Assembly (NCBI GenBank): GCA_014377695.1
Contig: JACMPA010000026.1
Span: 4,873 to 68,872 of the forward strand
Direction: 5' to 3'
DNA: 64,000 nt
Source of the DNA: Candidatus Saccharimonadota bacterium
GTDB taxonomy: Bacteria; Patescibacteriota; Saccharimonadia; Saccharimonadales; UBA4665
Of the stretch, positions 1,759 to 55,035 are shown in pieces; the stretch's first letter is position 1, and each line of letters opens with the position of its first letter. A program made the position numbers and the translations under genes. Below the pieces are notes generated by a model. The model had not been told where the DNA came from. It searched no databases and saw only the letters and a program-made list of their open reading frames with translations.

Positions 1759-2947
1759 GCGGTTGTTGTTTCGGACTAACAACAGCGAACGAGCCTGAAC
1801 GGATATGCTCTACACCTGGTAATAAAAACCCATGCCACATATGTACCTACAGTGGCGACTTCACTTGGGAATAGTTTTTTAGTTCTTTTGTTGGTAGGCT
1901 TTTTGCTTGAACTCTAAATCTCTTTGAAGGTTTTGGTATGCTTCGCCTCGAAGTTTACCTACGTCAAACAACATTATTACTCCAGCAACTAACGCACCGT
2001 AAAAGAAAGTTCGAGCAAATAGAGCTGTTAGTCCAAGAACGACAAAATTCGCTCGAGCGACGTGGCGGACTGGATGTTATCTACAGTCGAAGAGCGGGGT
2101 GAGCCCACTCAGAATAATGCTTTTTACAAGATCAATATGCAGTTCGGTACCGGCTTTACCACCATAACGACTAGCGGTAGCCCCTCTCAATCAAAGGTGG
2201 CGTACTGACTGCTTTCAAGCGAATAAGTGAAGCTACGGTCGTCTGGGAACGAGGAGATAAAAAATGGCGTGAGCGAGAGTTCTATGACGCGCCCGGACGT
2301 GACCGGTTCTAAGGATCAGCGTCATTTATCGCGCCCATCGATCTGAATACAAGGCGGTAATTGGCGAACAGGTTTTTGATGGCAGTACCTATTTGGCGAT
2401 TGGCGAAACCAAGGATAGCCCGCTAGCCGAAAAGTTTATCTACATGCTGGCTCGTATATATGTGCGGAGTCCTGAAACCGCCGAGTATATCATCGACATC
2501 GGCCGCTTACCAGGCTTGAAGTAGCTGGGCAATCGATATCTACATCCCGGATTAGTTGCATCGAATCTTCACAAAATCCAACTTTCTCATAGAACAATTA
2601 CACTGCGAATGAAGCGAGGTACTCATAAAACTTATAATGGCTTCCTAGCAATTAGGCCATCTAGCAATCTAAAACCTGGGTGATATGTAGGAGAGATTGT
2701 GAGATCACATGTCGAGGCTAACGCAGTAGCGAGGACGAGTAGACGGACTACACAGACTGCCGATTATACGGACATAGTACGATCCAGCAAACAAGATCAG
2801 CCTCACGCTGGTGACGCGGTACGATTAAACCGGAAATAAAGGCTGCTAGATATATTTTTGTCTTTTTAAACTTAACCAACATTACGCACCGCAAGGCATA
2901 TCTCTTATGCTATTATTACGATATTAAGTAATAAGCAAGGAACATGT

Positions 2948-3700
2948 ATGGATTCTGCAAATGTCTGGCTCTGGTTCGGTTTAATAGGTATGTTAGTAGG
3001 AAGTTTCGTCATATTTGTAATGACGCAGCTGCTTCGAAAAGAAGATCAGCATCATGGGTATGTGGCCCTCAGTATCACGTTAATAGCAGCGACTGCTTAC
3101 TACGCACTCGCTACGCATCTCGGTGACTTCTCATTCAATGGCAAGACCGTTCAGGTAGCTCGCTATGCTGACTGGGTGATCACTACACCGCTTTTGCTGC
3201 TCGGGCTGCTGGCAGTCGGTTTACCAACAGTATTGAAACTAAAAAACCTGAATTACCGGCTTGGGTTAATACTGGCCATCCTCGGGTTGGATATCTACAT
3301 GATACTAACCGGCTTCCTTGCCGTACTTGCCAATTCAAACAACTCATACGTTTGGTACGCCGTCAGCTGCGGAGCTTTCCTGGCCATAACGCTGCTGCTG
3401 TTCAGTGAAGTGAGGAACCTCTCATTACACAACGGTGGTAAAAAAGTGGCCGCTTTGTACATGCGCTTGACTTACTTCCTGACGGTCGTTTGGATATTCT
3501 ACCCGGTCGTATGGTTCCTAGGAAACGATGGCACCAGTACTATCAGCTACACGACGGAGAATGCCCTCTACGCGATTCTTGATGTGACTGCGAAAGTCGG
3601 TTTCGGTCTCCTCACGATATCTGGGATACTCAGTTTACAACGTGACATCAAGCCTGCTAGCGGCGAGTCCACTATCGACGCCGCCGCTTCGCGTCAATAG
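2948..3700 (+). CDS. Type-1 microbial rhodopsin with a D-T-G motif; predicted light-driven proton pump
   Basis: Seven hydrophobic helices. Helix C RYADWVITTPLLLLGL (BR: RYADWLFTTPLLLLDL). Helix F WIFYPVVWFLG. Helix G LDVTAKVGFG with the Schiff-base Lys (K216, codon 3593-3595) and counterion D212. Confidence 0.93.
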   Translation: MDSANVWLWFGLIGMLVGSFVIFVMTQLLRKEDQHHGYVALSITLIAATAYYALATHLGDFSFNGKTVQVARYADWVITTPLLLLGLLAVGLPTVLKLKNLNYRLGLILAILGLDIYMILTGFLAVLANSNNSYVWYAVSCGAFLAITLLLFSEVRNLSLHNGGKKVAALYMRLTYFLTVVWIFYPVVWFLGNDGTSTISYTTENALYAILDVTAKVGFGLLTISGILSLQRDIKPASGESTIDAAASRQ

Positions 3701-3740
3701 TCTGAACTACCGTTGTTGATCTGACTCAGATTAAACATAT

Positions 3741-3769
3741 AAATAAGACCCAAAAACTGGGTCTTATTT
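3741..3769 (+). terminator. Rho-independent terminator after the rhodopsin gene
   Basis: Hairpin aaataagaccc-aaaaact-gggtcttattt followed by a T-rich tail. Confidence 0.6.
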
Positions 3770-3863
3770 ATTTATACCTATAGCAGTGCGCTGCTCTTAT
3801 TTTGGGAGAAGTTGAACATCTTCTTAGATGTCGAAGGGTAGAACTACTACGCCCAACAGAAGC

Positions 3864-4466
3864 TCAGAGTGCATCAGTAAGCTTGGGCCGGTTGTGCGTT
3901 ATTAGATGCGCATCTGCGCGCCGCAGCAGTTCTGGACGAAGCTTAGCTATCTTTTGGATTTGATTGTACGCGCTGTAGCTATGTTTTGCCGGGCCAGACA
4001 TCACAGATAAATTTAAGTCGTCCTGGGCGAAATATATATCGTAGAATGGGATTAATACAGACCCTTTGAATCGGAACATTGATGCCAACGCAATAAGTGG
4101 CGTACCCCATTTATTAAGTGGCCTGTTTATATCAGTGCCGAGTTCTATGATTCGTCGCAACAATGGCTGTTCTGATTCAAAATCATGGTCATGAGCTCTC
4201 CTATAAATGATCAAAGGGTTACCTAAGCGTACATCAGCGCCGTCATCAAGTAACTTATTCGCTATCTTAATCCTGGAGGCAATATCGTTATTCGAAAGTG
4301 CATCGCTCAGTAGTTTCCGGCCGCCACTCCCGTACATGATGTTGCGATCAATACGTTTGTAGGTAGCTATGAATTCATCATAGCTACCCTCACGGGTCAC
4401 TCTCTCGATCGCTACATGATCACGAAGAACTTCATGCCAAAACTGAATGTAGGCTCTGAAGCGCAA
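3864..4466 (-). CDS. Ankyrin-repeat-like protein
   Basis: Two ANK-like units: LLSDALSNNDIASRIKIANKLLDDGADV and GTPLIALA...IIELGTDIN. TTG start in the ORF track. Confidence 0.5.
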   Translation of the reverse strand: MRFRAYIQFWHEVLRDHVAIERVTREGSYDEFIATYKRIDRNIMYGSGGRKLLSDALSNNDIASRIKIANKLLDDGADVRLGNPLIIYRRAHDHDFESEQPLLRRIIELGTDINRPLNKWGTPLIALASMFRFKGSVLIPFYDIYFAQDDLNLSVMSGPAKHSYSAYNQIQKIAKLRPELLRRADAHLITHNRPKLTDAL

Positions 4467-4639: not shown

Positions 4640-5185
4640 CTATGAATAGGCGGCACAACCACCAATTACATAAGTGAAAATAGTCACGAAATTATCAATT
4701 TTCGTGAAACCCAACCGCAAATAATATCCCAAGACCACTAGGATGATTGTTAACGTGGCGCTGCCGAGAAATGTAAAAAATAGAAACCGAGTATACAGTA
4801 TATGCTGGTATCCGGCCGGCACGGTTACTGCCGTGCGAATACCGGGCACGAATCGCCCAAAAAGACCGTCCGACGGACGTGAGTATCAAATAACTTGCCT
4901 GCTCGATCAATCTTGCGGGTCGTGATACCAAGCCACTTCCCGTGCTTTTCCAAGAATCGTGTAACCTTCTCACGATTTACAAGAGGTGCAACAATATAGA
5001 CTGATACCGAGCCAAGAGTGGAACCGATGGCGCCAGCCACGATAGCGGCCATTAAGTTCAGCGAGCCACGGGACGCAGTATATCCGACAAACGGCATGAC
5101 CGCCTCCACTGAAAAAAAAGAACATGAGGACGATAATACCGGCGTACTTTAATGACAGAATTGTCTCGTAGATGAAGCCGTTCAA
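4640..5185 (-). pseudogene. DedA/SNARE-associated membrane protein, disrupted by two homopolymer frameshifts
   Basis: Three ORF pieces join into a DedA pattern: ...YAGIIVLMFFF|SVEAVMPFVGYTASRGSLNLMAAIVAGAIGSTLGS...RRTVFF|GRFVPGIRTAVTVPAGY. The breaks lie at the A8 run 5112-5119 and the A5 run 4859-4863 (plus-strand coordinates). Confidence 0.7.
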
Positions 5186-5212: not shown

Positions 5213-5668
5213 TTAGCTATAATTGTTCAACTCTATATTGCTCTTTAGCTTTTTCAGCGCCCTGTCGAACATGCTATTCATGAGTGGTTTAATCAAAAAA
5301 AGACCAGCTTGACCGATAAGCCCGAACGGAACCGGGGTAATCTCCTGCCAGACGAATGTGCAGCTGTCATCCGCATGCGGGTGAACGCTGAATACCCCTT
5401 TGCCGAGGACGATCCTTCCGGTGTGCTCGACGACGATAGTATCGTACGGCTGCCATGTGGTAACTACCATAGTGTCACTGAATTTAAGCGGTCCGAATCC
5501 GGTAACAGCGAGCAGGCTGGCGCCTTGTCCTTTGACCGATTCAGACAAGTTTTTGACAGTAGTAAACGGTATCCAGCCGGACTGCCGTTCCCAGTCCGAA
5601 ACGTACTCAAAGACTGTCTGTTGAGTAGCCTGTATGTCAATTTTAAACGTGAGTGTGATTGTATTCAT
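5213..5668 (-). CDS. SRPBCC (START/polyketide-cyclase-like) family protein
   Basis: About 150 aa. The N-terminus IDIQATQQTVFEYVSDWERQSGWIPF is typical of SRPBCC ligand-binding proteins. Confidence 0.65.
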   Translation of the reverse strand: MNTITLTFKIDIQATQQTVFEYVSDWERQSGWIPFTTVKNLSESVKGQGASLLAVTGFGPLKFSDTMVVTTWQPYDTIVVEHTGRIVLGKGVFSVHPHADDSCTFVWQEITPVPFGLIGQAGLFLIKPLMNSMFDRALKKLKSNIELNNYS

Positions 5669-5697: not shown

Positions 5698-6804
5698 TTG
5701 GACTATACTAGAATGATGAAACGGTTATCGCTCACAGAACTTGAGAAGTACATCGAGAGCATCGATACGGCCGAGTATGCCAAGACCCGAAATTATATTG
5801 ACGGCTCGACCAAGTTGTCGGAGTATATCAGCCGTGGCTTCATTAGTCTGCCGCGCGTGCAGGAATTGATTCTCAAGAACAATACCAAATCGAGCGCCTT
5901 CAAGCTACTGAGTGAACTATCGTGGCGCGAATATTGGCAGCATACTTGGCGGGTGCGAGGCGACGAGATTTTTGAATACTTTCGCCCCCTCCCCTTCGAG
6001 CCGCGCAGTGGCCTGCCGACCGCCGTACTAGAGGCTAGCACTGGAATAAAAGCCCTGGATGAAGGCATTCACCAGTTATATGAGACAGGTTTTATAGATA
6101 ATCATATGCGCATGTGGCTGGCTGGACTTGTCTGCAACGTAGCTAAATGCGACTGGAAAATCGGTGCGGCTTGGATGCATTCCTATCTGATCGATGGCGA
6201 TTTTGCGAGCAATCATCTGAGCTGGCAATGGGTCGCCGGCAGCTACACGGGCAAGCCGTATTTACCCCAGCAGGCCAACATCAATACATATACCGAAACT
6301 GAGCAGGATGACACATATCTGAACAATACTTATGCGCACATCGCGGACATGGATGTACCTGATGAGTTAAACGATTTGACCAAAACATTGCCCGCGCACA
6401 AAGCGACGATGCTGCATGACACAATAACGATCGATGAGATACACGCTGCTGAGACGGTGCTGTTGTGCAGTCCGTGGACCCTTGATCCTACCTGGCGCTC
6501 CGCCGACACAGGTCAGCGCGTGCTAGTTATTCCGAGTGATATATATCAAGAGGGTGCATACAGCCAACATGTCCTGGATAGCATACAGCACTTCGTACAG
6601 CAGATTGATGAGCTAAGGATATGCAATTTGTCAGATAAACAGATCAAACAGCTTAGCCCCAACACGATACTTCGAAAAGACTATCCTGGTATTGCCACCT
6701 GGCCTGGCCAGGTGGACGGGGCAGAATTACTGCAACCAAACCTACCTGAGAAGTTCTACCCGTCCTACTCTGCCTACTGGAAGGCAATCGAGAAAAGTCA
6801 GTAG
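5698..6804 (+). CDS. Photolyase/cryptochrome-superfamily protein with inverted topology (FAD domain N-terminal; NewPHL-like)
   Basis: The protein starts directly with FAD_binding_7 motifs: YAKTRNYIDGSTKLSEYISRGFISLPRV, ELSWREYWQ, TGFIDNHMRMWLAGLV, DGDFASNHLSWQWVAGS. About 170 further aa follow. There is no N-terminal alpha/beta domain. The TTG at 5698 or the ATG at 5713 could be the start. Confidence 0.75.
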   Translation: MDYTRMMKRLSLTELEKYIESIDTAEYAKTRNYIDGSTKLSEYISRGFISLPRVQELILKNNTKSSAFKLLSELSWREYWQHTWRVRGDEIFEYFRPLPFEPRSGLPTAVLEASTGIKALDEGIHQLYETGFIDNHMRMWLAGLVCNVAKCDWKIGAAWMHSYLIDGDFASNHLSWQWVAGSYTGKPYLPQQANINTYTETEQDDTYLNNTYAHIADMDVPDELNDLTKTLPAHKATMLHDTITIDEIHAAETVLLCSPWTLDPTWRSADTGQRVLVIPSDIYQEGAYSQHVLDSIQHFVQQIDELRICNLSDKQIKQLSPNTILRKDYPGIATWPGQVDGAELLQPNLPEKFYPSYSAYWKAIEKSQ

Positions 6805-7041
6805 TCCTGCGTTTGTGGTATTCTAGACTTCGCGTACAGTCGTGAACATGATCCAGTCCGACATGTGTTCCCACGTCGTACTATACTCAAAGACCATTGC
6901 CAGCTCGGCGTGTATGGTTAGGTTAAATGAAAGCGTCACAACACTCATATCCTGACTGCATTCATAGCTACGAGCCGATGGATGAACGCACGACACACAA
7001 ATGCAGGCTCTGAAGCCAATATCGCCTGAACAACCAGTTGT

Positions 7042-8532
7042 TTAAACAAGCCATTGTCGCGCGGTTGATTCAATTGTCTGTTGCTTGTCGCTGCTAAATT
7101 TATCGTAAATTCTAACGACCATTTGCATGCGAAAGTTTTGCTTTATAATCTCTCGGTGATCATCTATAAATTTCCAGTACAAGGCATCCCAGACACCAGA
7201 CCACGGCTCTTTCTTGTAATCACTCATTTTTATTATGTAGTTGCTACCGCTGATATATGGCTTAGTCGTTATCAAGGTGCCGGCGGCAAACTGACTCATA
7301 GCGTAGACATTTGGAACCATAACCCAATCGTAGGCGTCAATAAACATCTCCATGAACCACCTATACACATCATCTGGATCAATACGTAGTAAAACCATTG
7401 CATTGCCTAAAATCATGAGACGCTCAATATGATGAGCGTAACCCGTGTCGAGCACTCGCTTGATCGTCACATCAATTGGCTTGATGCCGACGCTGCCGGT
7501 CCACCAGCCATGTTTCAGCTTTTGATGTGCTTCTAAGTAATTTGCAGTACGCATTTCTTTTCCAAAGTGCACATATGTCGCCCGCATGTATTCGCGCCAG
7601 CCAATTACTTGGCGTATAAATCCTTCTAGACTTTCGATCGGTGCCTCGTGCGATTTACTATAGCTAATTGTCGCCTCGACGACCTGACCAGGCGTCAATA
7701 GACCGCAGTTAATGAGCGGGCTCAATATGGAATGGAATAATTCTGATTCTGATTCAGCTATTGCATCCTCGTAGGGCCCAAAGTCAGCTAACCGTTCATT
7801 CAAGAACCGCTCTAACTGCTCCATGGCTTGATCGTGAGTTACCGGGTAGACAAAGGTTTGACTGGTTCCGGGATTGCCTCCAAACGATTCATCAACCCAT
7901 TGCATGGCTTCGGCGACATGGTCCGATGTGTTCGTCGGATAGCATGGCGGCAAGACTATACTCTTGGGCAACTTTTTACGGTTAGAAGCGTCAAAACTCC
8001 AGGCGCCTCCAATCGGTTTATTATCGGCAGTCATTAGAATGTTCAAGCGTTTGCGCTGCCAGGCATAGAAGCTCTGCATACGATTTGGGTTATTACTGAA
8101 GTAATCGTCAATCAAACCGAGGCTGGTTAAAAATCCTGGGGACTCATGCCGCTGGGCCGACACGCCAAGCTCTTCGAAGAGCTTAAACAATGATTCTTGT
8201 AGCCAATCGTCAGTGAGTTCATAGTACGTAATTGCGGACGGTTTTAGGCTACTGAGTGCCTCACCGACTACATCCATACTTTTGCGGTCCGACGTCTCTA
8301 CCACTATTACTCGAAATCCACGAGATTCCAATAGGTCTTTGAAATGACGGATAGACGCACGATGTAGTAGTAATTTCTGTTTATGAAATTTGTATTGCTT
8401 AAAGAACAGGTCGTCTTCAATCAGCAGCATCGTGGTATCCGCCGGGGCGGTAGTGTGCTCAAGGAATAGCTGATTTGGAAATATCAACCTCACCGGTTGT
8501 CGTGTTGGAGTGGGATCAGATATAGCACTCAA
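7042..8532 (-). CDS. FeS-BCP/COG3046-type cryptochrome/(6-4) photolyase-like protein lacking the Fe-S cluster cysteines
   Basis: LIFPNQLF...LLIEDDLFFKQYKFHKQKLLLHRASIRHF, IGWREYMR, TGYAHHIERLMILGN, DAYDWVMVPNVYAMSQFA, KPYISGSNYIIKMSDY. There are only two Cys in 496 aa, and neither sits in the C-terminal DYCxxC...C region. Confidence 0.8.
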   Translation of the reverse strand: MSAISDPTPTRQPVRLIFPNQLFLEHTTAPADTTMLLIEDDLFFKQYKFHKQKLLLHRASIRHFKDLLESRGFRVIVVETSDRKSMDVVGEALSSLKPSAITYYELTDDWLQESLFKLFEELGVSAQRHESPGFLTSLGLIDDYFSNNPNRMQSFYAWQRKRLNILMTADNKPIGGAWSFDASNRKKLPKSIVLPPCYPTNTSDHVAEAMQWVDESFGGNPGTSQTFVYPVTHDQAMEQLERFLNERLADFGPYEDAIAESESELFHSILSPLINCGLLTPGQVVEATISYSKSHEAPIESLEGFIRQVIGWREYMRATYVHFGKEMRTANYLEAHQKLKHGWWTGSVGIKPIDVTIKRVLDTGYAHHIERLMILGNAMVLLRIDPDDVYRWFMEMFIDAYDWVMVPNVYAMSQFAAGTLITTKPYISGSNYIIKMSDYKKEPWSGVWDALYWKFIDDHREIIKQNFRMQMVVRIYDKFSSDKQQTIESTARQWLV

Positions 8533-8542
8533 TGTATTCTCC

Positions 8543-9427
8543 TTATTTCATGTACCGTTTATACGCGTCGGCGGTATAGCGACCATAGTTGACGACTGTT
8601 TCATGTACCGTTACTGCGCTACTCAATTCTAATCCCTTTTCTTGGATTATACGCTCGCGCACTGATTTACGGATGTCTGAAATAACTTTACCATTACTTT
8701 TTCTAGTTGTATCAAAATCGAGCATTGGTTTGGCTGACTCAAGAATTGCTGCGACTGTTCGGTCGTTTGTTTCAGGCAACCAAAAATGAACATACGCCGC
8801 GGTCGGATCACGCTCTTTAAAATTCTTAGTTGGATTATTCATTCTAAACGTTGGACTGAGCGGGCTGGTAATCCCAGCTTGCATCTGCCATTGCCAATGG
8901 TTAGTGGCGATATCTCCATCCACCAGGTAATTCTTAAAATGCCGCGCGCCATGATGCTAGCTCACTCCACAGTTTATGGTAAGAAAAGTAGTTGCCATGG
9001 CTCGCATTCTGAAGTTTATAAAGCCATCAGTACCTAGCTGGATCATTGCAGCATCAAGCAACGGATAGCCAGTCCGGCCATCCTTCCAGCGTTCAAAATA
9101 TTCGAGCTTTTGGCCAGCTAATGGCTCATCGCAGTACACAGCATCAAATTCTGGCAAGCGATTGTGCCACATCAAGTCTGGGTGAAACCACAGGCGCTGC
9201 GTAAAGCTATCGCGCCAACGCAATCGATTCAGGTAGGCAGCAATATCAAAAGCTTTTTTAGGACTAGCCTGCTCAAGCTTAGATCTATGTTTTGCTGCTG
9301 CCTGAAACACCGCGCGACTGGCAATTGTGCCAAACGCGAGGTGGGGCTCTAGCAGTGAGGTAGCACCGTGTTGGGCCAAATATGGCCGAGATATCTTCCA
9401 ACGATAGCCCTCAACCCGGTTTTTCAA
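8543..9427 (-). pseudogene. Photolyase FAD-domain gene remnant: no N-terminal domain and an in-frame TAG
   Basis: ORFs 8957-9427 and 8543-8923 are in the same frame, separated by a TAG at 8957-8959: ...FINFRMRAMATTFLTINCGVS*HHGARHFKNYLVDGDIATNHWQWQMQAGI. The stop sits where the family has Trp. The protein begins at the FAD domain (TSLLEPHLAFGTIASRAV). Confidence 0.7.
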
Positions 9428-12281: not shown

Positions 12282-13820
12282 CTATTGATTGAATTTATTG
12301 GCTAGGCGCGCAAAGTCGGCGATGTCAACCTTACCACTACTGTCAATATCAGCACGAGGATTAGTTAACTGAGCCGTAGTACGGTTGAAATTAGCTGACA
12401 AGATCGAGAAGTCGGCGATGTCGACTCTACCGCTCATATTTATATCTTCGGCGCGGAAGGTACTGTTGGTAACCGTTACGCTGACACTAGTGCTTGGCTT
12501 AGTATTTCCAGCAGCGTCACGAGCGATAGCAGTCAAGTTGTAAATACCGTTAGCAGTCGTAGTTGTATTCCAACTAGTGCTAAATGGTGACGACGTGACT
12601 TCAGCATTTAGATTAACGCCGTTTAGCTGGAACTGGACACCCGTTACTCCGACTGCATCGGAAGCTGTAGCAGTAAGCGTTACAGGGCCATTAAGAATTG
12701 CATTCGCAATTGGTGCGGTTATAGAAACTGTCGGTGCCGTAGTATCGGCAGCTGGAGCTAACGTTGTCAGTGTAGCGTCAGGTGACATCGTCAAGTTACT
12801 GGCTGCGTCTTTGGATTTCACTCGGTAGTGATACAGCGTGCCGGCCGTCAAGCCGCTAACATTGACACTATGAGTAGTCACTTTAGTGGTTGCGAGGGTC
12901 GAAGTACTACCATATGCAGTCGTAGTACCATATTCAACTTGCGAGTCCGCAGCTTCATTTGTCGTCCATGTGACCGTGGCCGAGGTTTGAGTGATGCTGC
13001 TGCTAGCAACCACACTCACGGTTGGCGCCGTACTATCCGGGATAGTAAAGGTTACCTGGCTACTTGATCCGACATTACCGACGCTATCTGTGGCCTTCAC
13101 GACTAACGTATGTGACCCGACGCTCAAACCGTTCAAGCTGAGCGGTATCACATATGCACCTGTAGTAGGCGTAGCATCAGTAGCGGCGGCCGTAGTACTA
13201 CCGTCTAAGTAAGCAGCAATACTCGTAATTGAGCTTGTGTCGGTAGTAGTTCCGGTAATATTAGTGGTAGCACCACTCACAGAAGCAGCATTAGCCGGGG
13301 CAGTTACCGTAACAGTTGGGGCAATCGTATCGCTCGAAGCACAATTTTCACCGTAATAATTAACGCCACCGATTGCCACGGCCGTATTATCGGGCACACA
13401 GCTGCTGTCGCCGGTCATAATAATGCGATCAACTTCGACGTTGTCATCTTTTCCAGCCATGGTAACCGTGAACGCTCCGGCTGAGTTAGAACTAACAACG
13501 ACTGGCGTAGCGTACTTGACCCAGGTCCATGTGTTAGCAGTTAGGGTCGTGCCGCCCATGGTCGCCCCACACAGCAAGTTTGAACCAGCGTTATCTATGT
13601 TCATATAATACGCGTTATTGGCCGGTGTAGCCGTGCGAATACGACTCCAGATCGTATAAGTACCCGCAGTCAGTGATGCGGACTGGGTCACAGTACCTCT
13701 GTCGGTTGGCAAGGCGGCACAAGCAGCTGAAACAGGTTGCTGAGATGTCGTATACATGAGACAGGTTGTAACCGTTAATACGGCTATCAAGAATCCAGCC
13801 ACTCCACTTTTGATCGTCAT
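12282..13820 (-). CDS. Secreted multidomain protein: CBM-like module, Ig-like repeats, FN3, C-terminal dockerin
   Basis: Signal/anchor GFLIAVLTVTTCLMYT. CBM-like TAGTYTIWSRIRTA...VEVDRIIMTG. FN3 ATVTWTTNEAADSQVEYGTT...LYHYRVKS. Two dockerin Ca-loops: DINMSGRVDIADFSILSANF and DIDSSGKVDIADFARLANKF. Confidence 0.8.
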   Translation of the reverse strand: MTIKSGVAGFLIAVLTVTTCLMYTTSQQPVSAACAALPTDRGTVTQSASLTAGTYTIWSRIRTATPANNAYYMNIDNAGSNLLCGATMGGTTLTANTWTWVKYATPVVVSSNSAGAFTVTMAGKDDNVEVDRIIMTGDSSCVPDNTAVAIGGVNYYGENCASSDTIAPTVTVTAPANAASVSGATTNITGTTTDTSSITSIAAYLDGSTTAAATDATPTTGAYVIPLSLNGLSVGSHTLVVKATDSVGNVGSSSQVTFTIPDSTAPTVSVVASSSITQTSATVTWTTNEAADSQVEYGTTTAYGSTSTLATTKVTTHSVNVSGLTAGTLYHYRVKSKDAASNLTMSPDATLTTLAPAADTTAPTVSITAPIANAILNGPVTLTATASDAVGVTGVQFQLNGVNLNAEVTSSPFSTSWNTTTTANGIYNLTAIARDAAGNTKPSTSVSVTVTNSTFRAEDINMSGRVDIADFSILSANFNRTTAQLTNPRADIDSSGKVDIADFARLANKFNQ

Positions 13821-13823
13821 AAG

Positions 13824-23932: not shown

Positions 23933-25285
23933 TTGCCTCTAGACAAATTTGCATTCATGGTTATAATCATGCTTAAGGATACAAAAAAGAAAACTATGAC
24001 AAAAAAGATGCTCAAAAGCAAACCAGTTAGTAAGATATCAAAGGCTAAGCCCGCAGTAAAACCACGAGCCACCAAAATTGTCAGTAAAGCCAAGGTAACG
24101 ACCAAATCACACCCAACGACAGCGTCGAAAACGGTCGTAGCTAAAAAAGCCCGCAAATCAGTTACGTCTAAAAAAAGTGTCCAACCTAAAGGCTTCAAAC
24201 ACCACGCAAAGCGGATTTATCATCTAACTCCAAAGTTTATCCACGGTATGGTGGCTGGTGCGTTCGTTGGCGTAGTACTAGTAACGTCCCTCGGCATCAC
24301 TGGCGGTGCGGTTAACGCCAACCCAGCCCCGGCTGGTTGTATAAAAGTAACTGACGGCATTAACGTCAATAACGCCAATGCCAATGCTACCGTTAAGCTC
24401 AACGATGGCTGTGGGGTTCGTAAATTTGTACTAAAAGCCTACTACGCACCGAACGATAAAGGCGGTGCTTTTGGATCACAGCAAGTACAATTTGCTGTGA
24501 CAACACCACCAGCAGTCGTAAAAACTGCTGGACACGAACCAGTCAAAATCCACGTAAATATGTTTGATAACAGTTGTTTCTACCAAGTTGATTTGGTAGA
24601 TGTTACAAATGGTGACAACGACGGGAAGAATCCGATCGCGGCTGTCGCAACCGGCGGCAAAAAAGACTGTCGACCCGATCAATCACATGCCTACGCTTGT
24701 GGGAGTCTCGGACTAACGCCTGGTGATCACACAGCTACAATTTCTACCTTCACGACAACTCAGACGAACGCCACGTTTACAGGCGCTACCATTGACTGGG
24801 GTGATAATACAATCGTCCAGGCCACCGCTGTACAAGGGCAAACCCACAAATACTCAGCCGACAATACCTACACTGTCTCAGTAATCGCTAAATTCACCTA
24901 TACTGGCCGATTTGACGGCGTACACAATGTAACCGCACCGGCCTGTAGCCAATCAATTACGTTTGCCACGCCGCCACCCAACACTAAGTTGATTTATATC
25001 TGCCAAATCAGTTCCAAGCAGATTGTGAATATCGACGAGAAACTGTTTGGCACACCGCAGTACCCTGTCGACCAGTACACAAAAGATTTGACACAGTGTG
25101 TGGTCGTTCCACCGCCAACAGCCCCTCCAACCACGACTCCACCAACTAATGCGCCCCCTGCAACCTTAGCCAACACTGGTCCCGGCGCCGTACTCGTAGT
25201 ATTTGGCCTGGCCATGATCGGCGGCTATGTGTTCCACATGACCCACCGCCACGTCCAACACAAAAAACGCTCACACCGGGCTTAG
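23933..25285 (+). CDS. Cell-wall-anchored surface protein with a PKD-like domain and an LAxTG sorting signal
   Basis: Lys-rich N-tail, signal-anchor MVAGAFVGVVLVTSLGITGGAVNA, PKD-like IDWGDNT...HKYSADNTYTVSV, PT-rich stalk. The C-terminus is LANTG + hydrophobic stretch + HRHVQHKKRSHRA. The start is uncertain: TTG at 23933, ATGs at 23957, 23969 and 23996. Confidence 0.7.
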   Translation: MPLDKFAFMVIIMLKDTKKKTMTKKMLKSKPVSKISKAKPAVKPRATKIVSKAKVTTKSHPTTASKTVVAKKARKSVTSKKSVQPKGFKHHAKRIYHLTPKFIHGMVAGAFVGVVLVTSLGITGGAVNANPAPAGCIKVTDGINVNNANANATVKLNDGCGVRKFVLKAYYAPNDKGGAFGSQQVQFAVTTPPAVVKTAGHEPVKIHVNMFDNSCFYQVDLVDVTNGDNDGKNPIAAVATGGKKDCRPDQSHAYACGSLGLTPGDHTATISTFTTTQTNATFTGATIDWGDNTIVQATAVQGQTHKYSADNTYTVSVIAKFTYTGRFDGVHNVTAPACSQSITFATPPPNTKLIYICQISSKQIVNIDEKLFGTPQYPVDQYTKDLTQCVVVPPPTAPPTTTPPTNAPPATLANTGPGAVLVVFGLAMIGGYVFHMTHRHVQHKKRSHRA

Positions 25286-25676: not shown

Positions 25677-26078
25677 TTAGAAACTTGGTGTCTTTAATAT
25701 GCCCGCAACTAAATTATCGATGTCATCGTTGGCCATGTTGGCTTTTATGACGTACCCGGCAATGCCCAATTCGGCTAGATTAGAAGGTGCTTCGGCTTGG
25801 TTTAGGTTCGAGATAATTAGCACTTTGATATCTTTGCCCCATGAGCTGGCGCGCATTGTTTCGAGGACTTTGCCGCCAGGGATATCTGGTATCATCAGAT
25901 CCAGGAGCACAAGGTCGGGCACTTCTTGTTGAATAAAATATAGACCGGTTATACCGTTGTAGCCGATAAAGCAGGTGTAGCCGAGTAGTTCGAGCCGAGT
26001 TTTGTAAATCTCGGCTAAGGCGCTATTGTCTTCGACAATAACAATTTTTTGGGTAGGTGGGGTAGTTGGTGTATCCAT
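25677..26078 (-). CDS. Single-domain response regulator (receiver only)
   Basis: IVIVEDN, phospho-acceptor context PDLVLLDLMIP, conserved K in YVIKA. Confidence 0.85.
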   Translation of the reverse strand: MDTPTTPPTQKIVIVEDNSALAEIYKTRLELLGYTCFIGYNGITGLYFIQQEVPDLVLLDLMIPDIPGGKVLETMRASSWGKDIKVLIISNLNQAEAPSNLAELGIAGYVIKANMANDDIDNLVAGILKTPSF

Positions 26079-26125
26079 GGGATCATTCTAGCACCTGTCA
26101 GCTGAATCAAGGTATACTTTACTCA

Positions 26126-27742
26126 ATGAACGCCTTTTATGCGGTGCTGCGACATCGATCCCGAGTACTAGCCTATTTGTTCGGCAGTTTCGTGGTGAGT
26201 TTGTGGACTGTATTACGGCACATTAGCAATGGGGTAAACTTCGACGTCGTCGGTCAAATCGGCTTAGCTCAACAATGGGCGAATGGCTTTCACAGTGGGG
26301 CGCAACTTGGCGCTACCAACTACGTACTAAAAATACCCCTTTACATGCTAGTGAACGACTTTGGGTTTATTAGCCCGATGCACCGCTTACTGCTACTTGC
26401 TCTACTCTGTAATATCGCGACTTTTGCGTTGCTGTTCTTAGTGTTCGAAAAGATTGCCAAGTTGTATGAAATTCGCAATACGCTTTGGTTGTACCTGGCT
26501 ATGATCTGGCTAGCTACGATAGCCGGTAACGTCTTCTGGACTGATTACGCTAATTCTCGTAACTTAGAAACCGTTGGCGGAATTTTATTCCTGTACCTTG
26601 TCCTCAAGTTTATCCGTTCACAGTCGGTTGGTACGGCCAGTCTAGCCGTACTAGCTGGTAGTATCGCATTCTTTGCCGATTCACTACAGTTGTATATTTG
26701 TGGCGGTGGCGCCTGCTTATTTGTCGTAGCTAGGTGGCTGATACGCCGCCAATGCCAGGCTGCAGTTGTAGCTGCTAAAATCATTGGTATTATCCTTCTG
26801 AGCTACGGTGGGGCTAGATTAATCCGTATCATCGTCGAACATACACTACACGTTAGCTTTTTGCTGGCACCACGAGTGGAAATCAAGCTTGACGCGGCGA
26901 CAGTCAGCCAAACCCTGCGAACGGTTTGTAGTAGCACTCTGGATATTTTTGGAGCGAATGTCTTTAAACGACCTTATGATCTTAACTCGGTCCGTGAGGC
27001 TTTGAGTCTCGTAGTACTGGTTGTAGTTATTGCTTTACTCATCCGAGCGGCTGCCACAATACGTTCTAGATCGGCAATGGGTCTTGGACTTAGCGCAATT
27101 TTCGTGAGCTATGTGATTTATGTGGCTAGTGGTCAAGTGCTGGTTCCAGTAACCTACCGTTACCTCATCATGGTACCGCTACTCCTAATACTACTCATTT
27201 CGAATGCGGGTGATGCCATTGGCGGTAGACGTACTGTTGCTGTCGCACGGTTACAGTTTGTTTGGCTAGCCGTCTCACTTGTGAGTAGTGTCATGCTGGC
27301 TGGTGCAGTCGCAACTCATTGGCCAACACGACACGCCAACGACGCACACATCTACGCCACGAGCTCATTTTTGACTAGCAACAACTTGCAGTACAGCCTA
27401 TCTTCACGAGAAGCCGGCATCACTACTACGTATTTTGCCGGTGGCAGAGAAACCGTACTACCCCTCCTCTGTACTGCCGATAACCGTTTAGTTCTGACAG
27501 ATTTATTCTACGACAAGGCTGCCTTCGAGAGCTTTCAGAATTACCAAGGTAACACTGCCATCATTGTGCCCGGTACGGGCATTGTGTCCGGTAGTGACGT
27601 TTGCGACACTACCGCCATTACCGCGCAGTTTGGGCCTCCAGATAGTCAGGGACCCGTCCCCGGAGTTGGTACAGCACTCGTGTACACGCCGGCCGAGCTG
27701 CGGGCACACTTAGCACCGCTGCCAGTTGAGGATGTGCGCTAA
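26126..27742 (+). CDS. Polytopic membrane protein; possible GT-C-type glycosyltransferase
   Basis: More than 10 hydrophobic helices and a soluble C-terminal region of about 120 aa. No diagnostic motif was recognised. ATG at 26126 (MNAFY) preferred. Confidence 0.5.
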   Translation: MNAFYAVLRHRSRVLAYLFGSFVVSLWTVLRHISNGVNFDVVGQIGLAQQWANGFHSGAQLGATNYVLKIPLYMLVNDFGFISPMHRLLLLALLCNIATFALLFLVFEKIAKLYEIRNTLWLYLAMIWLATIAGNVFWTDYANSRNLETVGGILFLYLVLKFIRSQSVGTASLAVLAGSIAFFADSLQLYICGGGACLFVVARWLIRRQCQAAVVAAKIIGIILLSYGGARLIRIIVEHTLHVSFLLAPRVEIKLDAATVSQTLRTVCSSTLDIFGANVFKRPYDLNSVREALSLVVLVVVIALLIRAAATIRSRSAMGLGLSAIFVSYVIYVASGQVLVPVTYRYLIMVPLLLILLISNAGDAIGGRRTVAVARLQFVWLAVSLVSSVMLAGAVATHWPTRHANDAHIYATSSFLTSNNLQYSLSSREAGITTTYFAGGRETVLPLLCTADNRLVLTDLFYDKAAFESFQNYQGNTAIIVPGTGIVSGSDVCDTTAITAQFGPPDSQGPVPGVGTALVYTPAELRAHLAPLPVEDVR

Positions 27743-33804: not shown

Positions 33805-33810
33805 TCAATA

Positions 33811-34878: not shown

Positions 34879-34883
34879 GGCAT

Positions 34884-35369
34884 ATGTTCCGCAGCATCAC
34901 TACTGACCAATCGGGATTTACACTCGTTGAAGCGTTGGTTGTAACTGGCATACTCGTCATCCTGTTTGCGGTTGGGGCAGTAAACCTCGGTCAGCCTCAG
35001 ACTAACGCTCGGTCAATCAGTGCCGTGGACACACTGGTTAACGACCTAAAGTCGCAGCAGATCGCTGCCATGGCTGGAGCAACGGGCAGCACGGCTGCTC
35101 AACAGGCAGCAGGTATATTTGTGCAATCCAATCAATACACCTTGTTCAATGGCGCCAGCTTTAGTGCTGGTAACAGTTATAACTACATGTTTACGCCCGC
35201 TATCGGCGTCGCATTCGGCACAACCTTCCCCGGCGGCATCATATTGTTTACCAAGGGGGCTGGTGAATTAAGCGGTTTCACGGCGGGTAATAATACCATA
35301 ACCGTAACCGCTGGCGGTGTCAGTAAAGTCATCACTATCAGCCGCTTTGGAGCGGTGACAGTCACATGA
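34884..35369 (+). CDS. Minor (pseudo)pilin with prepilin-type N-terminus
   Basis: QSG|FTLVEALVVTGILVILFAV. Confidence 0.8.
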   Translation: MFRSITTDQSGFTLVEALVVTGILVILFAVGAVNLGQPQTNARSISAVDTLVNDLKSQQIAAMAGATGSTAAQQAAGIFVQSNQYTLFNGASFSAGNSYNYMFTPAIGVAFGTTFPGGIILFTKGAGELSGFTAGNNTITVTAGGVSKVITISRFGAVTVT

Positions 35370-38135: not shown

Positions 38136-38139
38136 GCCC

Positions 38140-52611: not shown

Positions 52612-55035
52612 TTAGCGCGCGACGATGTTAACAATTTTGCCGGGAATATAAATCGTATTTAGAATGTCATGGCCCTCAGTGTGGGCCCGTACTCGCTCGT
52701 TACTTTGTGCGGTAGCTATAACGTTTTCTTCCGTTTCATTAGCGGCAATTTCGATCTGGCCGCGCAGCTTGCCATTAACCTGGACTGCAATTTTTATAGT
52801 GTCTTGGACTAGGTATTTAGCTTCAAACTTTGGCCAAGTATCAACATGCACGCTACTGTGATGGCCGAGGTCAAACCACAATTCCTCGCTAGCGTGTGGT
52901 GCAAACGGTGCCATACAGGCGACAACTGCTTCAAGTGCCTGCTGCCAGGCGTCATTCCGACCTAACGCTTGGACTTTCAATTTATACAATTCATTAATGG
53001 CGCTCATACCGGCCGAAATTGCGGTGTTATAGCGATTGCCCTCAATGTCCTCAGTTACCTTTTTGATCATCTGATGGGTTACGCGCAATAGTTCTTTCGC
53101 TTGATCAGATGAGGCAGGGGCTGGTTCGGTTGCAACATATTCTTGTACCAAGTTCCAAATACGTGAGATAAATCGATAGGTTGCCGGCACACCTTGGGGA
53201 TCCCATTTTGCCCAAGTATCCAGCGGTGCCGCGAACATCAGGAACATCCGGAGCGCATCCGCCCCGTAGCCCTGGTTGATAATTTCTAACGGATCAATGC
53301 CATTACCCTTGCTCTTACTGAACATCGTACCGTCGGCCGCTGTAACTTTGCCATTAAACAAGAACTGTTTGAACGGCTCTGGTTCGTCGACTAAGCCGAT
53401 GTTTTTGAAGAAATGACCGATGAAGCGGGCGTACAACAAATGAGCCGTAGCGTGGTCACCGCCGTTATAGAAATCAATCGGCTCCCACTTCTGGACGATG
53501 GCTTTATCAAAGATTTCGGCTTGGTTTCGTGGATCCAGGTAACGGTACATATACCAGCTGCTACAGATGTAGGTGTCTAAGGTGTCGGTTTCGCGCTCCG
53601 CCGGACCGCCACACTCGGGACACTCCACTGCCAACCAATCTTTAGCGCGCGCCAGCGCGCTGCGGCCATCACCGGTCGGCTTGAAGTCATCGAGTTCTGG
53701 CAATATGACTGGCAGCTCCGTATCCGGGACCAAGACTGGGCCGCACTTGGCACAGTGAATAATTGGAATCGGAGCGCCCCAGTACCGCTGCCGGCTGACA
53801 CTCCAGTCCCGCATTTTGTAATTAATCTTGGAAATAGCTTGGTCTGTCGTTACTAATTGCCCAACGATAGCTTCGCGAGCTTCGTTGGCGTTCTGGCCAT
53901 CAAATCCGGCTGAGTTGATAAGAGCGTTGTTATCATCGACGACTTGGATGATCGGCAAGTTGGCCATAACGGCAAACTCTTCGTCGCGCTCATCATGAGC
54001 AGGCACGGCCATAATGGCGCCGGTGCCGTAGCCAGCTAGCACGTAGTCGGCGATCCAGATTGGAATTTTTTCGCCGTTAATCGGATTGATAGCGTATGCT
54101 CCCGTGAACACACCGGTTTTGGTTTTTTCAGTTTGGCGCTCTAATTCGGATTTCTTTTGCGTTGCAACTATATAGGCCTGGACAGCAGCCGATTGGTCTT
54201 CAGTAAAAATCGAACGAACCAATTCGTGTTCCGGAGCCATAACCATAAAGGTCACCCCGTACAAAGTATCCGGACGAGTCGTAAAGACACTGAGCGACTG
54301 CTCACTGTCAGTGATCTTGAAAGTAATTTCAGCACCGACGCTGCGCCCAATCCAGTTCTTTTGGGCCAGCTTGACGCTGTCGGTCCAATCTAGCCCGTCG
54401 ATTGATTCGAGGAGTTCGTCGGCGTAGTCGGTGATTTTAAAGAACCACTGTTTGACTTCTTTTTTCTGGACTAATGGATCGTCCGGACCATCGTGGCGCC
54501 AACATCTACCGTCGATGACTTGCTCATTTGCCAGAACTGAGTTGTCGAGTTCACACCACCACTGCATGCGGCTATCCTGATAGGCCAAACCGCTGCGGTG
54601 CATCTGCGCAAATATCCACTGGGTCCACTTGTAGTACTCCGGCAAGTGGCTGGCGATTTCCTTTTCCCAGTCATTGCTCCAACCCATGGCTTTATAGGCC
54701 TTGCGGTACTCGGGAATCAACTCCGCCATGCTCTCCTGCGGGCTTTTGCCGACTTTGATGGCCCGGTTTTCCGCCGGTAAACCAAAGGAGTCCCAGCCGA
54801 CTGGGTGATAGCTCTCGAACCCCTGTTGGCGCTTGAATCGCGCCTTTACATCGCTAATCGTGAAGTTCATGGCATGCCCAATGTGCAAATTACCGCTCGG
54901 ATAATTAAACATACTCATAGCAACGTATTTGGGCTTGCTACTCTGCAAATTAGTAGTGTAAACGCCGGTGGCATCCCATATGTCCTGCCACTTGGGTTCA
55001 ACATCTTTTGGTTTATAGCGTTTCATCATGAACAA
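52612..55035 (-). CDS. leuS: Leucine--tRNA ligase
   Basis: HIGH-type YPSGNLHIGH, editing domain, KMSKS-type FSKSKGN, bacterial LeuRS length (807 aa). Confidence 0.95.
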   Translation of the reverse strand: MFMMKRYKPKDVEPKWQDIWDATGVYTTNLQSSKPKYVAMSMFNYPSGNLHIGHAMNFTISDVKARFKRQQGFESYHPVGWDSFGLPAENRAIKVGKSPQESMAELIPEYRKAYKAMGWSNDWEKEIASHLPEYYKWTQWIFAQMHRSGLAYQDSRMQWWCELDNSVLANEQVIDGRCWRHDGPDDPLVQKKEVKQWFFKITDYADELLESIDGLDWTDSVKLAQKNWIGRSVGAEITFKITDSEQSLSVFTTRPDTLYGVTFMVMAPEHELVRSIFTEDQSAAVQAYIVATQKKSELERQTEKTKTGVFTGAYAINPINGEKIPIWIADYVLAGYGTGAIMAVPAHDERDEEFAVMANLPIIQVVDDNNALINSAGFDGQNANEAREAIVGQLVTTDQAISKINYKMRDWSVSRQRYWGAPIPIIHCAKCGPVLVPDTELPVILPELDDFKPTGDGRSALARAKDWLAVECPECGGPAERETDTLDTYICSSWYMYRYLDPRNQAEIFDKAIVQKWEPIDFYNGGDHATAHLLYARFIGHFFKNIGLVDEPEPFKQFLFNGKVTAADGTMFSKSKGNGIDPLEIINQGYGADALRMFLMFAAPLDTWAKWDPQGVPATYRFISRIWNLVQEYVATEPAPASSDQAKELLRVTHQMIKKVTEDIEGNRYNTAISAGMSAINELYKLKVQALGRNDAWQQALEAVVACMAPFAPHASEELWFDLGHHSSVHVDTWPKFEAKYLVQDTIKIAVQVNGKLRGQIEIAANETEENVIATAQSNERVRAHTEGHDILNTIYIPGKIVNIVAR

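Follow-up and report, generated by a model that had tools for sequence, protein, structure and literature searches.

Within a 64-kb stretch of contig sequence, analysed as a whole and referred to here as the window, we identified an intact open reading frame of 250 amino acids with an ATG start that encodes a type-1 rhodopsin. This identification, first made in an initial annotation from the nucleotide sequence, is upheld by a Pfam profile search in which PF01036 (Bac_rhodopsin) covers residues 5-227 with E 7.8e-47 and a score of 160 bits, the cutoff being 24.6, and by the predicted fold; NCBIfam returned no model for the protein. The protein was known to NCBI before this analysis, as the 100% identical entry MBC7581884.1, named "bacteriorhodopsin [Candidatus Saccharibacteria bacterium]", and the top match among GTDB species representatives stands at 54%. 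The features of the locus are:

2893..2942, + strand: conserved leader or promoter-proximal stretch
2948..3700, + strand: type-1 rhodopsin coding sequence, 250 aa, DTG motif, Schiff-base Lys216 (PF01036, AF2 fold, identity to MBC7581884.1)
3739..3771, no strand: perfect 15-bp hairpin (consensus scan)
5213..5668, - strand: SRPBCC / Polyketide_cyc2 protein, 151 aa (Pfam)
5698..9427, no single strand: photolyase/cryptochrome-family gene cluster, a light-related context outside the pump
5698..6804, + strand: FAD_binding_7 protein (Pfam)
7042..8532, - strand: DPRP-type protein of the photolyase/cryptochrome cluster
8543..8923 and 8957..9427, - strand: two FAD-binding-domain fragments of the same cluster

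The leader matches the sequence upstream of two orthologues (L085 and L086) at 86% identity over 51 nt and closes with a Shine-Dalgarno-like AAGGA at 2937-2941, 6 nt ahead of the ATG; most of the remaining intergenic DNA is not alignable with these loci. A scan for sigma-70-like promoters upstream of the rhodopsin gene found none, with fewer sites than in shuffled sequence. Downstream, the hairpin falls between the rhodopsin gene and a convergent 200-aa open reading frame (3864..4466, - strand), and likely represents a bidirectional terminator. Homologues of the SRPBCC protein directly adjoin a rhodopsin gene in two other loci, L006 (41% identity) and L085 (51% identity), and a functional tie between the two proteins is unproven. 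In a further locus, L082, homologues of the FAD_binding_7 and DPRP-type genes (39-40% identity) were found upstream of a DTG rhodopsin. Also observed among relatives was the pairing of the DTG rhodopsin with a neighbouring heliorhodopsin or second rhodopsin. In loci of the DTS rhodopsins of Saccharibacteria (SacRs), the gene directly downstream encodes a conserved 294-aa SDR that had not been annotated before.

The contig carrying the gene is saccharibacterial (CPR). Its LeuRS has top matches, at 79% identity, in Ca. Microsaccharimonas and Saccharimonadales, and among its best 120 matches every named one belongs to Saccharibacteria/Saccharimonadales except the self-match label. That label, "Aeromicrobium sp.", is the NCBI source label of both the rhodopsin and LeuRS, for which the nr name is "Candidatus Saccharibacteria bacterium", and it raises the alternative that a rhodopsin from a non-CPR organism was mis-binned, a circumstance that the initial annotation had itself named as one that would refute its reading. 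We find this scarcely credible: the rhodopsin shares one contiguous sequence with housekeeping genes, including this LeuRS, and its GC and GC3 are typical for the contig; the GC of the window is 47.9%, compared with 62-67% in the Aeromicrobium bins of the candidate source study (PMC7701988); and Logan, which assembled that run independently, has the same stretch of 13.7 kb with 99.95% identity. Mis-binning is already refuted at the contig level, and a chimeric joint between 3.7 and 52 kb is the sole route by which it could still apply.

An AF2 model of the rhodopsin (pLDDT 92.2, pTM 0.89) comprises seven long transmembrane helices and a B-C beta-hairpin resembling that of bacteriorhodopsin (BR), and its top structural matches are rhodopsins (TM 0.8-0.93). 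Sequence searches of the PDB matched 165 distinct rhodopsin sequences, with 130 bits to the leading cyanorhodopsin as opposed to 91 bits to Pseudomonas putida PspR (7W74). By sequence and fold, CyR N2098R and deltarhodopsin, both of them outward pumps, are the nearest structures. Cyanorhodopsins have a carboxylic proton donor, within a DTE motif. Related sequences from cyanobacterial MAGs carry, in our alignment, a DTD motif and Phe in place of His at query position 36. Resemblance to the cyanorhodopsins (N2098R, PDB 6LM0; PMC7541481) lies in their being outward proton pumps and in their providing the best solved structure (1.2e-36, TM 0.82-0.90). Comparison of the rhodopsin gene with its closest relative gave a dN/dS of 0.05, which indicates an intact gene under strong purifying selection.

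Residues were mapped through a MAFFT alignment of the query with BR and 120 homologues. Query residues R72, D75, W76, T79, L83 and G86 correspond to BR R82, D85, W86, T89, L93 and D96, respectively, and W182, Y185, P186, W189, D212 and K216 bear the same numbers in both proteins; every residue that the initial annotation had named is among them. The motif reads DTG, with Gly where BR has its proton-donor carboxylate, as first claimed, and Leu occupies the colour-tuning site. In helix G, D212 and the Schiff-base K216 of the DxxxK pattern are aligned with those of BR, the retinal pocket is complete (W76, T80, L83, W182, Y185, P186, W189), and the pocket residues and Schiff-base Lys are unchanging throughout the query clade. 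The proton-release positions of BR are occupied by D194 and E204. His36 is present in all donor-less clades of the alignment, and Phe takes its place in 20 of the 20 DTD relatives. It aligns with the His of the PspR-type sequences of Pantoea and Sphingomonas, taken to be PspR His33 (BR F42), which in PspR hydrogen-bonds a water adjoining the motif Gly (PMC8927995). The PspR cavity also contains a conserved His37 (BR T46 position) and Tyr213 (BR F219 position, 95% conserved) (PMC8927995); the query has Ala40 and Phe219 at these positions, and so lacks two hydrophilic residues of the uptake cavity. The protein ends in a conserved, predicted-helical cytoplasmic tail, G-E-S-T-I-D-A-A.

Phylogenetic reconstruction, by neighbour-joining over approximately 240 columns with 100 bootstraps, grouped the query with four metagenomic relatives (P0002-P0005) in a single clade at 100% bootstrap, and all four share its DTG motif. 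This clade joins the DTS Saccharibacteria-type clade, whose motif is that of the published SacRs, with a moderate bootstrap of 71%, and in none of the 100 replicates did it join a large actinobacterial DTG clade that takes in proteins labelled Thermoleophilia and Solirubrobacterales. The Pantoea and Sphingomonas sequences group with Kushneria, away from the query subclade. Within the DTS clade lies P0012 (244 aa), 47-48% identical to the query, whose gene neighbourhood is that of SacR_NC315 (Table S2, PMC9296517), a match made by neighbourhood and not by sequence. The query, a variant with Gly, belongs to the DTS SacR clade or adjoins it. The phylogeny called for in the initial annotation therefore sets the query beside the SacRs and apart from the PspR-type and actinobacterial DTG clades.

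Saccharibacterial rhodopsins had been mentioned in the initial annotation as reported before; this is borne out, with the qualification that those described are DTS and not DTG (PMC9296517, PMC8406219). Three of them, SacR_NC315, SacR_NC335 and SacR_LP818, were described by Jaffe et al. 2022 in ISME J (PMC9296517), having first been noted by Jaffe et al. 2021 (PMC8406219); for SacR_NC335 a "hole" for the entry of retinal has been described. With these the query shares its host phylum, the type-1 fold, a motif that starts with D-T and has a non-carboxylic third residue, the Leu colour-tuning site, the invariant His36, the conserved C-terminal tail and the absence of blh and crt genes nearby, in addition to its sister position and 45-54% identity. 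Among the differences, Gly replaces the Ser of the SacRs at BR D96; at BR E194 the query has a carboxylate (D194) in place of the T, S or V of the DTS SacRs; its C-D loop is longer by 4-5 residues, as in the P0006-P0011 group; and it has no copy of the SDR gene that directly follows DTS SacRs. The protein is an additional, minor motif variant of the known SacR group published in 2021-2022, with Gly for Ser at the proton-donor position as the main difference.

The proteobacterial DTG pumps that the initial annotation had cited as precedent provide a functional analogy but are not the closest family. PspR (PDB 7W74), the Pantoea rhodopsins and Sphingomonas SpaR (PMC8927995) resemble the query in their DTG motif, the absence of a donor on the cytoplasmic side, the His at the His33 position, and an expected direct uptake of protons from solvent with pH-dependent pumping. 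They are, however, only 30-32% identical to it, differ from it at His37 and Tyr213, have in Pantoea and Sphingomonas a Ser where the query keeps E204, and in those genera are plasmid-borne with blh immediately 3', a gene missing from the window. KaDTS and HsDTS of Kushneria and Halomonas, tested experimentally (PMC9296517), are donor-less outward proton pumps of the same broad clade with an equivalent of His36; their hosts are gammaproteobacterial, they are 36-41% identical to the query, and both position 96 and position 194 are Ser in them.

Pfam scans, which took in essentially all open reading frames of at least 130 aa, identified no crt, blh or carotenoid-oxygenase genes in the 64 kb, and tblastn with two Blh proteins against the window reached nothing better than an E of about 1, in agreement with the initial claim that genes for retinal or carotenoid synthesis are missing here. 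When a heliorhodopsin and a second rhodopsin served as tblastn queries, the window yielded only the rhodopsin gene itself, and the SacR-linked SDR was not found by the same means. Among the scanned open reading frames there was likewise no ATP synthase (atp) gene, nor any known partner such as an Htr-like transducer (HAMP/MCPsignal), a transducer being what the initial annotation had named as evidence against a pump.

We favour, with a probability of roughly 0.8, the reading that the gene encodes an outward proton pump of the SacR lineage driven by green light, which would operate with scavenged retinal and direct cytoplasmic reprotonation of the Schiff base. The apoprotein would fold into seven transmembrane helices and bind all-trans-retinal at K216 as a protonated Schiff base, the chromophore being supplied by hosts or neighbours to a cell presumably unable to make any. 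Green light, at about 550 nm as suggested by Leu83, would isomerise the retinal; the Schiff-base proton would then pass to D75 and a proton would exit outward via R72 and the D194/E204 pair. Since position 86 is Gly and provides no carboxylate donor, the Schiff base would be reprotonated straight from water on the cytoplasmic side, by way of a hydrophilic cavity with the invariant His36, and turnover, like that of PspR, might be expected to vary with the pH of the cytoplasm. Proton motive force built up in this way could drive secondary transporters as well as the F1Fo ATP synthase. Experiments on relatives lend support to this scheme: SacR_NC315, the two other SacRs and a Kushneria aurantia relative are CCCP-sensitive outward proton pumps absorbing at about 550 nm, and the three SacRs need no more than 30 s to bind retinal supplied from outside (PMC9296517). 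Furthermore, DTG and DTS rhodopsins pump without a donor, the proton being taken directly from solvent, as seen in the PspR structure (PMC8927995). The donor-less green pump with scavenged retinal proposed initially is thus supported by sequence, phylogeny and published work on sister proteins. What may count against a pump is the replacement of the PspR-cavity residues His37 and Tyr213, the 71% value of the key neighbour-joining node, the derivation of the pumping evidence from DTS sisters, the absence of an ATP synthase from the window, and the second rhodopsin or heliorhodopsin that accompanies the DTG gene in close relatives.

That a cytoplasmic donor is missing might instead point to a photosensor, in which a slow photocycle would serve to control light-response genes in the vicinity, for instance those for the photolyases and a Crp-family regulator, and not to pump for energy. 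Consistent with this, the gene lies within the photolyase/cryptochrome cluster and 7 kb from a Crp/FNR regulator, a Crp gene is found directly 3' of the DTS rhodopsin in locus L089, the conserved helical tail could offer an interaction site, and the extra rhodopsin of the relatives could take over pumping. This window, however, contains one rhodopsin only and no transducer or other known partner. CPR rhodopsins surveyed by Chiriac et al. likewise have no transducer nearby, which again speaks against sensing. The query moreover retains the pump-like D75, D212 and D194/E204 release pair, and the tested DTS sisters pump protons while being equally donor-less; on balance a photosensor is decidedly unlikely. 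A further proposal is that the DTG subclade is a functionally specialised SacR lineage and not a trivial Ser-to-Gly variant, acting as a strongly pH-gated pump or a light sensor of cryosphere Saccharibacteria whose chromophore is perhaps handled by other accessory proteins; an SRPBCC protein carrying retinal might, for instance, stand in for an SDR whose role might be the oxidation of scavenged retinol. This proposal draws on Gly86 together with the restored BR-like D194/E204 pair, on the absence of the SDR, on the photolyases and the SRPBCC lipid-binding protein encoded nearby, and on the heliorhodopsin or second DTS rhodopsin next to the DTG gene in close relatives, which leaves room for a specialised and possibly non-energetic role. 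We regard it as rather unlikely.

A role independent of retinal, with the opsin acting as a constitutive phospholipid scramblase or a structural membrane protein, gains some plausibility from a 2025 preprint describing light- and retinal-independent scramblase activity of a bacterial rhodopsin, which it offers as an explanation for opsins in genomes without the last enzyme of retinal synthesis (10.1101/2025.08.17.670764), and from the absence of blh and crt from the window. Yet the pocket and Schiff-base Lys, needless without a chromophore, are invariant under strong purifying selection, and SacRs take up external retinal within seconds and pump; we judge such a role very unlikely, and any scramblase activity that the protein had would come on top of pumping and not replace it. 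Other modes of transport, namely an inward proton pump of the xenorhodopsin kind or an anion or sodium pump, are suggested by the presence of BcXeR, cyanobacterial chloride pumps and the TTG "glycilhalorhodopsin" 8xx8 (Gly at D96) among the best sequence and structure matches. In xenorhodopsins and Anabaena sensory rhodopsin, Pro replaces BR D212, and in anion and sodium pumps T or N replaces D85 (TSA, TSD, TTG, NTQ, NDQ). The query has Asp at both positions (Asp212 and Asp75), and its nearest tested relatives are outward proton pumps, making these modes highly improbable.

That rhodopsin is one of few routes to a proton motive force open to an organism of this kind, as had been suggested for this locus, was already concluded by Jaffe et al. 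2022 (PMC9296517). Reliance on retinal from other cells would bind the episymbiont to its host metabolically in a concrete way, a point already published for the DTS SacRs, and the overall picture is unchanged by this locus. New from it are a conserved DTG branch of the lineage, represented by five sequences under strong purifying selection, a gene neighbourhood unlike that of DTS SacRs, and a source that is probably glacier ice rather than the lakes of the DTS SacRs. A High Arctic glacier study (PMC7701988) fits as the probable origin, with bins of both Aeromicrobium and Saccharimonadales and deposit dates that agree. The natural Gly/Ser and D194/T194 variants should also be useful for studies of donor-less proton uptake and release.

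Elsewhere in the window, two large open reading frames without a Pfam match (23933..25285 and 26066..27742) were considered as hidden carotenoid oxygenases and rejected, neither having PDB relatives; they encode an LPXTG-like surface protein and a multi-transmembrane protein, the latter putatively glycosyltransferase-like by inspection. An Rfam search over the window returned two tRNAs only, the best match in the 1.19-kb gap upstream of the rhodopsin gene, to Chlorobi-1 RNA (E 0.69), being dismissed as chance. Also encoded in the window are a type IV pilus operon and cohesin/dockerin proteins.

The rhodopsin reading frame (window 2948..3700, forward strand; 250 codons, ATG start) was recovered in an ORF listing of the window, and the profile search proposed in the initial annotation matched residues 5-227 of its product to Bac_rhodopsin (PF01036) with 160 bits against a Pfam cutoff of 24.6 (E 7.8e-47). 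A search of the PDB with this query protein matched 165 distinct rhodopsin sequences, among which the cyanorhodopsins 6LM0 and 6LM1 ranked first (1e-36). An AlphaFold2 model built from a 24-sequence alignment (mean pLDDT 92.2, pTM 0.89) comprised seven long helices, a B-C beta-hairpin resembling that of bacteriorhodopsin (BR), and a short C-terminal helix, and its top Foldseek matches were microbial rhodopsins only (target-normalised TM-scores 0.83-0.93). Purifying selection on the gene is strong: comparison with an 84%-identical orthologue on the metagenomic contig L085 gave a dN/dS of 0.05, with synonymous sites close to saturation. A Shine-Dalgarno-like AAGGA lies 6 nt 5' of the ATG, the 51 nt 5' of the start are 86% conserved among orthologous loci while the remaining intergenic DNA is mostly unalignable, and a perfect 15-bp hairpin lies 3' of the stop codon.

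Residues were mapped from an alignment of the query, its 120 best homologues from the database search, and mature BR, and all those named in the initial annotation were confirmed. R72, D75, W76, T79, T80, L83 and G86 correspond to BR R82, D85, W86, T89, T90, L93 and D96, and W182, Y185, P186, W189, D212 and K216 carry identical numbers in both proteins. With D75, T79 and G86 at BR D85, T89 and D96, the motif is D-T-G; the cytoplasmic donor carboxylate is thus missing, as had been proposed, and L83 provides the predicted Leu at the BR L93 colour-tuning site. The outward-pump set is complete (acceptor D75, T79, second counter-ion D212, R72, K216, and the retinal pocket), and D194 and E204 fill the BR proton-release positions.

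Motif classes among the 120 best homologues included DTG (62), DTS (36) and DTD (20). In a neighbour-joining tree rooted on BR (100 bootstraps), the query formed a clade with four metagenomic proteins, P0002-P0005 (74-84% identical; 100% bootstrap); every member of this clade is DTG and carries D or N at residue 194. The phylogeny called for by the initial annotation places this subclade with a DTS clade of SacR type (71% bootstrap), and in 0/100 replicates with a large E194/E204 DTG clade whose named members come from Thermoleophilia and Solirubrobacterales. The published group of Saccharibacteria rhodopsins (SacRs) is the DTS clade, which includes P0023 and P0038, labelled Ca. Saccharibacteria, rhodopsins of Swedish and Finnish lake MAGs (L005, L009, L014), and P0012. 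The gene order around P0012 (inositol-1-P synthase, CarS-like, CDP-OH transferase, phosphatase, rhodopsin, 294-aa gene, DEAD helicase, Nramp) agrees with the Table S2 entry for SacR_NC315 (PMC9296517), the two being likened by gene order alone. Position 194 carries a carboxylate beside E204 in the DTG subclade, compared with T, S or V in DTS SacRs, and in the alignment this pairing is a BR-like proton-release pair.

The C-terminal tail G-E-S-T-I-D-A-A-A (window 3656-3691, residues 237-248) is shared by most SacR-type proteins (consensus KPKxGESTxDAAAK), with a short helix predicted at 242-248 after helix G. No description of this tail was found in the rhodopsin literature examined; it may serve in interaction or sorting.

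His occupies query position 36 (BR F42; codon at window 3053-3055) in 90/90 donor-less (DTG/DTS) homologues, comprising the DTG subclade (5/5), SacR-type DTS (21/21), Kushneria-type (7/7) and Thermoleophilia-type DTG (57/57) proteins, whereas Phe is found in 20/20 DTD relatives. His36 therefore covaries cleanly with loss of the carboxylic donor. Through alignment with Pantoea and Sphingomonas rhodopsins, members of the PspR-type family, we take it to be the equivalent of His33 in the Pseudomonas putida rhodopsin PspR. In the PspR structure, which has hydrophilic cytoplasmic cavities, His33, His37 and Tyr213 hold a water beside the motif Gly (PMC8927995); the equivalents of the latter two are Ala40 and Phe219 in the query. 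The initial comparison with proteobacterial DTG pumps stands insofar as these likewise lack the donor, but they share only 30-32% identity with the query, attach to the Kushneria group in the tree, and are represented by a PspR (7W74) match of 91 bits, where cyanorhodopsin reaches 130 bits. DTG/DTS rhodopsins reprotonate the Schiff base straight from the cytoplasmic solvent (PMC8927995), so that the reprotonation rate follows [H+]; the donor-less arrangement is a known, workable one. CCCP-sensitive outward proton pumping has been demonstrated for five DTS rhodopsins, namely three SacRs and two gammaproteobacterial relatives; absorption near 550 nm, an M intermediate, and binding of added retinal within 30 s were recorded for the SacRs, whose genomes lack blh (PMC9296517).

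Given the full set of pump residues, this donor-less precedent, and His36, the query is expected to be a green-absorbing, pH-dependent outward pump for protons, and we put the probability that it is one, using scavenged retinal, at roughly 0.8. From retinal binding onward, the steps are inferred from homologues: scavenged retinal would be bound by the protein, D75 would accept the proton, release would proceed via the D194/E204 pair, and the Schiff base would be reprotonated directly from cytoplasmic solvent with no carboxylate donor.

A sensory role would be in keeping with the absent donor, the light-related gene neighbourhood, and the extra rhodopsins of relatives, but there is no transducer in the window, the pump residues are conserved, and the DTS sisters pump. 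A retinal-independent scramblase role, after a recent preprint (10.1101/2025.08.17.670764), would leave unexplained an invariant retinal pocket under purifying selection, while an inward pump or an anion or sodium pump is excluded by the presence of D212 and D75.

Consistent with outward pumping on scavenged retinal, the reported lack of carotenoid and retinal genes in the 64 kb was borne out. Pfam scans of essentially all window ORFs of at least 130 aa revealed no crtE/B/I/Y-type domains, Blh/Brp, or carotenoid oxygenase, and tblastn with Pantoea and Sphingomonas Blh gave nothing better than E ~1 in the window. As a positive control, blh was located directly 3' of plasmid-borne DTG/DTS rhodopsins in Pantoea anthophila and Sphingomonas parapaucimobilis. 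Two large Pfam-less window ORFs considered as Blh-like proteins were rejected, one being a surface protein of LPXTG-like type and the other a multi-TM protein. Neither a heliorhodopsin nor a second rhodopsin was found within the window.

The query protein is already annotated in NCBI (MBC7581884.1, on a 77,965-bp contig), where its source reads 'bacteriorhodopsin [Aeromicrobium sp.]' against '[Candidatus Saccharibacteria bacterium]' in nr; the leucyl-tRNA synthetase (LeuRS) record P0136 carries the same conflict ('Aeromicrobium sp.' versus 'Candidatus Saccharibacteria bacterium'). The NCBI label would favour mis-binning of the rhodopsin from a non-CPR organism, which the initial annotation had raised as grounds for refutation, but this is excluded at the contig level. 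LeuRS (window 52612..55035, reverse strand) has best matches of 79% to Ca. Microsaccharimonas, and named matches among its best 120 are all Saccharibacteria/Saccharimonadales except the self-match with the old NCBI label. Rhodopsin GC (0.491) and GC3 (0.57) fall inside the spread of other window genes (0.490 +/- 0.021 and 0.503 +/- 0.056; window GC 47.9%), and in an independent Logan assembly of run SRR9661224 the first 13.7 kb recur at 99.95% identity. Gene content also fits a Saccharibacterium, with housekeeping genes (including Mur ligases, Ddl, RNase III, NusB, TrmD and S16) and a set of cell-surface genes of the kind usual in episymbiotic Saccharibacteria:

window 12282-15305, reverse strand: dockerin/Big-domain protein adjoining a cohesin-domain protein
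window 23933-25285, forward strand: LPXTG-like ('LANTG') anchored protein
window 32110-42529, forward strand: type IV pilus operon with PilB and PilC homologues, six prepilin-like genes, and an LVIVD beta-propeller protein

Together, these lines of evidence free the gene-organism link from the mis-binning problem. The contig likely stems from the High Arctic glacier study of Zeng et al. 2020 (PMC7701988), in which Aeromicrobium and Saccharimonadales bins are both present and whose Saccharibacteria MAGs are cited as rhodopsin carriers by Jaffe et al. 2021 and Chiriac et al. 2022. Since 'Aeromicrobium' bin LF-bin-295 of that study (5.0 Mb, 61.8% GC) is flagged for >15% multi-copy markers, the label suggests that the contig may at one time have shared a bin with an actinobacterium.

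Saccharibacteria rhodopsins had indeed been reported previously, as stated in the initial annotation, and its suggestion that the rhodopsin offers one of few ways to build a proton motive force agrees with the published concept of type-1 rhodopsins in Saccharibacteria without retinal synthesis, for which this force is otherwise hard to obtain (PMC8406219, PMC9296517, PMC9166423); the idea is hence not new. By alignment, the query differs from the published SacR motif by one residue (DTG versus DTS), and we found no description of a DTG branch of this lineage in the papers examined, which report DTS only.

Directly downstream of DTS SacRs, on the same strand, eight loci encode a 294-aa atypical SDR (54-96% identity between loci):

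L004 1421-2302: SDR next to rhodopsin
L005 10826-11707: SDR next to rhodopsin
L006 10820-11698: SDR next to rhodopsin
L009 6443-7312: SDR next to rhodopsin
L011 8187-9035: SDR next to rhodopsin
L090 7069-7950: SDR next to rhodopsin
L091 6782-7669: SDR next to rhodopsin
L092 6828-7712: SDR next to rhodopsin

This SDR matches Pfam NAD_binding_10, Epimerase and NmrA, has NDUFA9-like subunits as its closest PDB relatives, is annotated 'None' in Table S2 of Jaffe et al. 2022 (PMC9296517), and was not found in the window or in the two flanked DTG loci, L082 and L085. Any part it plays in retinol/retinal handling is purely speculative.

Other rhodopsin-linked genes were also identified. In three contigs the gene directly 3' of the DTG rhodopsin P0005 (75% identical to the query) encodes a heliorhodopsin (PF18761), and another contig has one immediately upstream of the DTS rhodopsin P0018. 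An SRPBCC/Polyketide_cyc2 protein, of a hydrophobic-ligand-binding fold, adjoins rhodopsin in three loci (41-51% identity):

L082 9054-9740: heliorhodopsin beside P0005
L083 2577-3263: heliorhodopsin beside P0005
L084 1645-2331: heliorhodopsin beside P0005
L091 4993-5754: heliorhodopsin beside P0018
window 5213-5668, reverse strand: SRPBCC/Polyketide_cyc2 gene
L006 9482-9922: SRPBCC/Polyketide_cyc2 gene
L085 2351-2796: SRPBCC/Polyketide_cyc2 gene, seemingly frameshifted

The contig of P0002 (84% identical to the query) also encodes, at a distance of 8 kb, a further type-1 rhodopsin (L085 10073-10804), which is DTS, 37% identical to the query, and of another clade (with P0083-P0096); some relatives thus hold two paralogous pumps.

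A photolyase/cryptochrome-family cluster adjoins the rhodopsin (window 5698-9427). Its members include a DPRP-type protein and a protein that has FAD_binding_7 only and is extended C-terminally by 170 aa; L082 has homologues of both upstream of its DTG rhodopsin. Neighbouring fragments at 8543-8923 and 8957-9427 jointly cover just part of the photolyase FAD domain and look like a split or decaying photolyase gene. Three overlapping ORFs in different frames (window 4640-5185, reverse strand), one with a weak match to UptA, an undecaprenyl-phosphate transporter of the DedA family, similarly look like a frameshifted membrane-protein gene. The 1.19-kb gap upstream of the rhodopsin (1759-2947) is unusually long and has no ORF of at least 60 aa; a small ORF there (window 2062-2312), ~62% identical in amino acids to an intact 79-aa copy at L085 989-1228, is broken by a frameshift near 2190, a site at which both assemblies agree. 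The frameshifts in the DedA/UptA-like gene and the photolyase FAD domain are likewise apparent in both assemblies.
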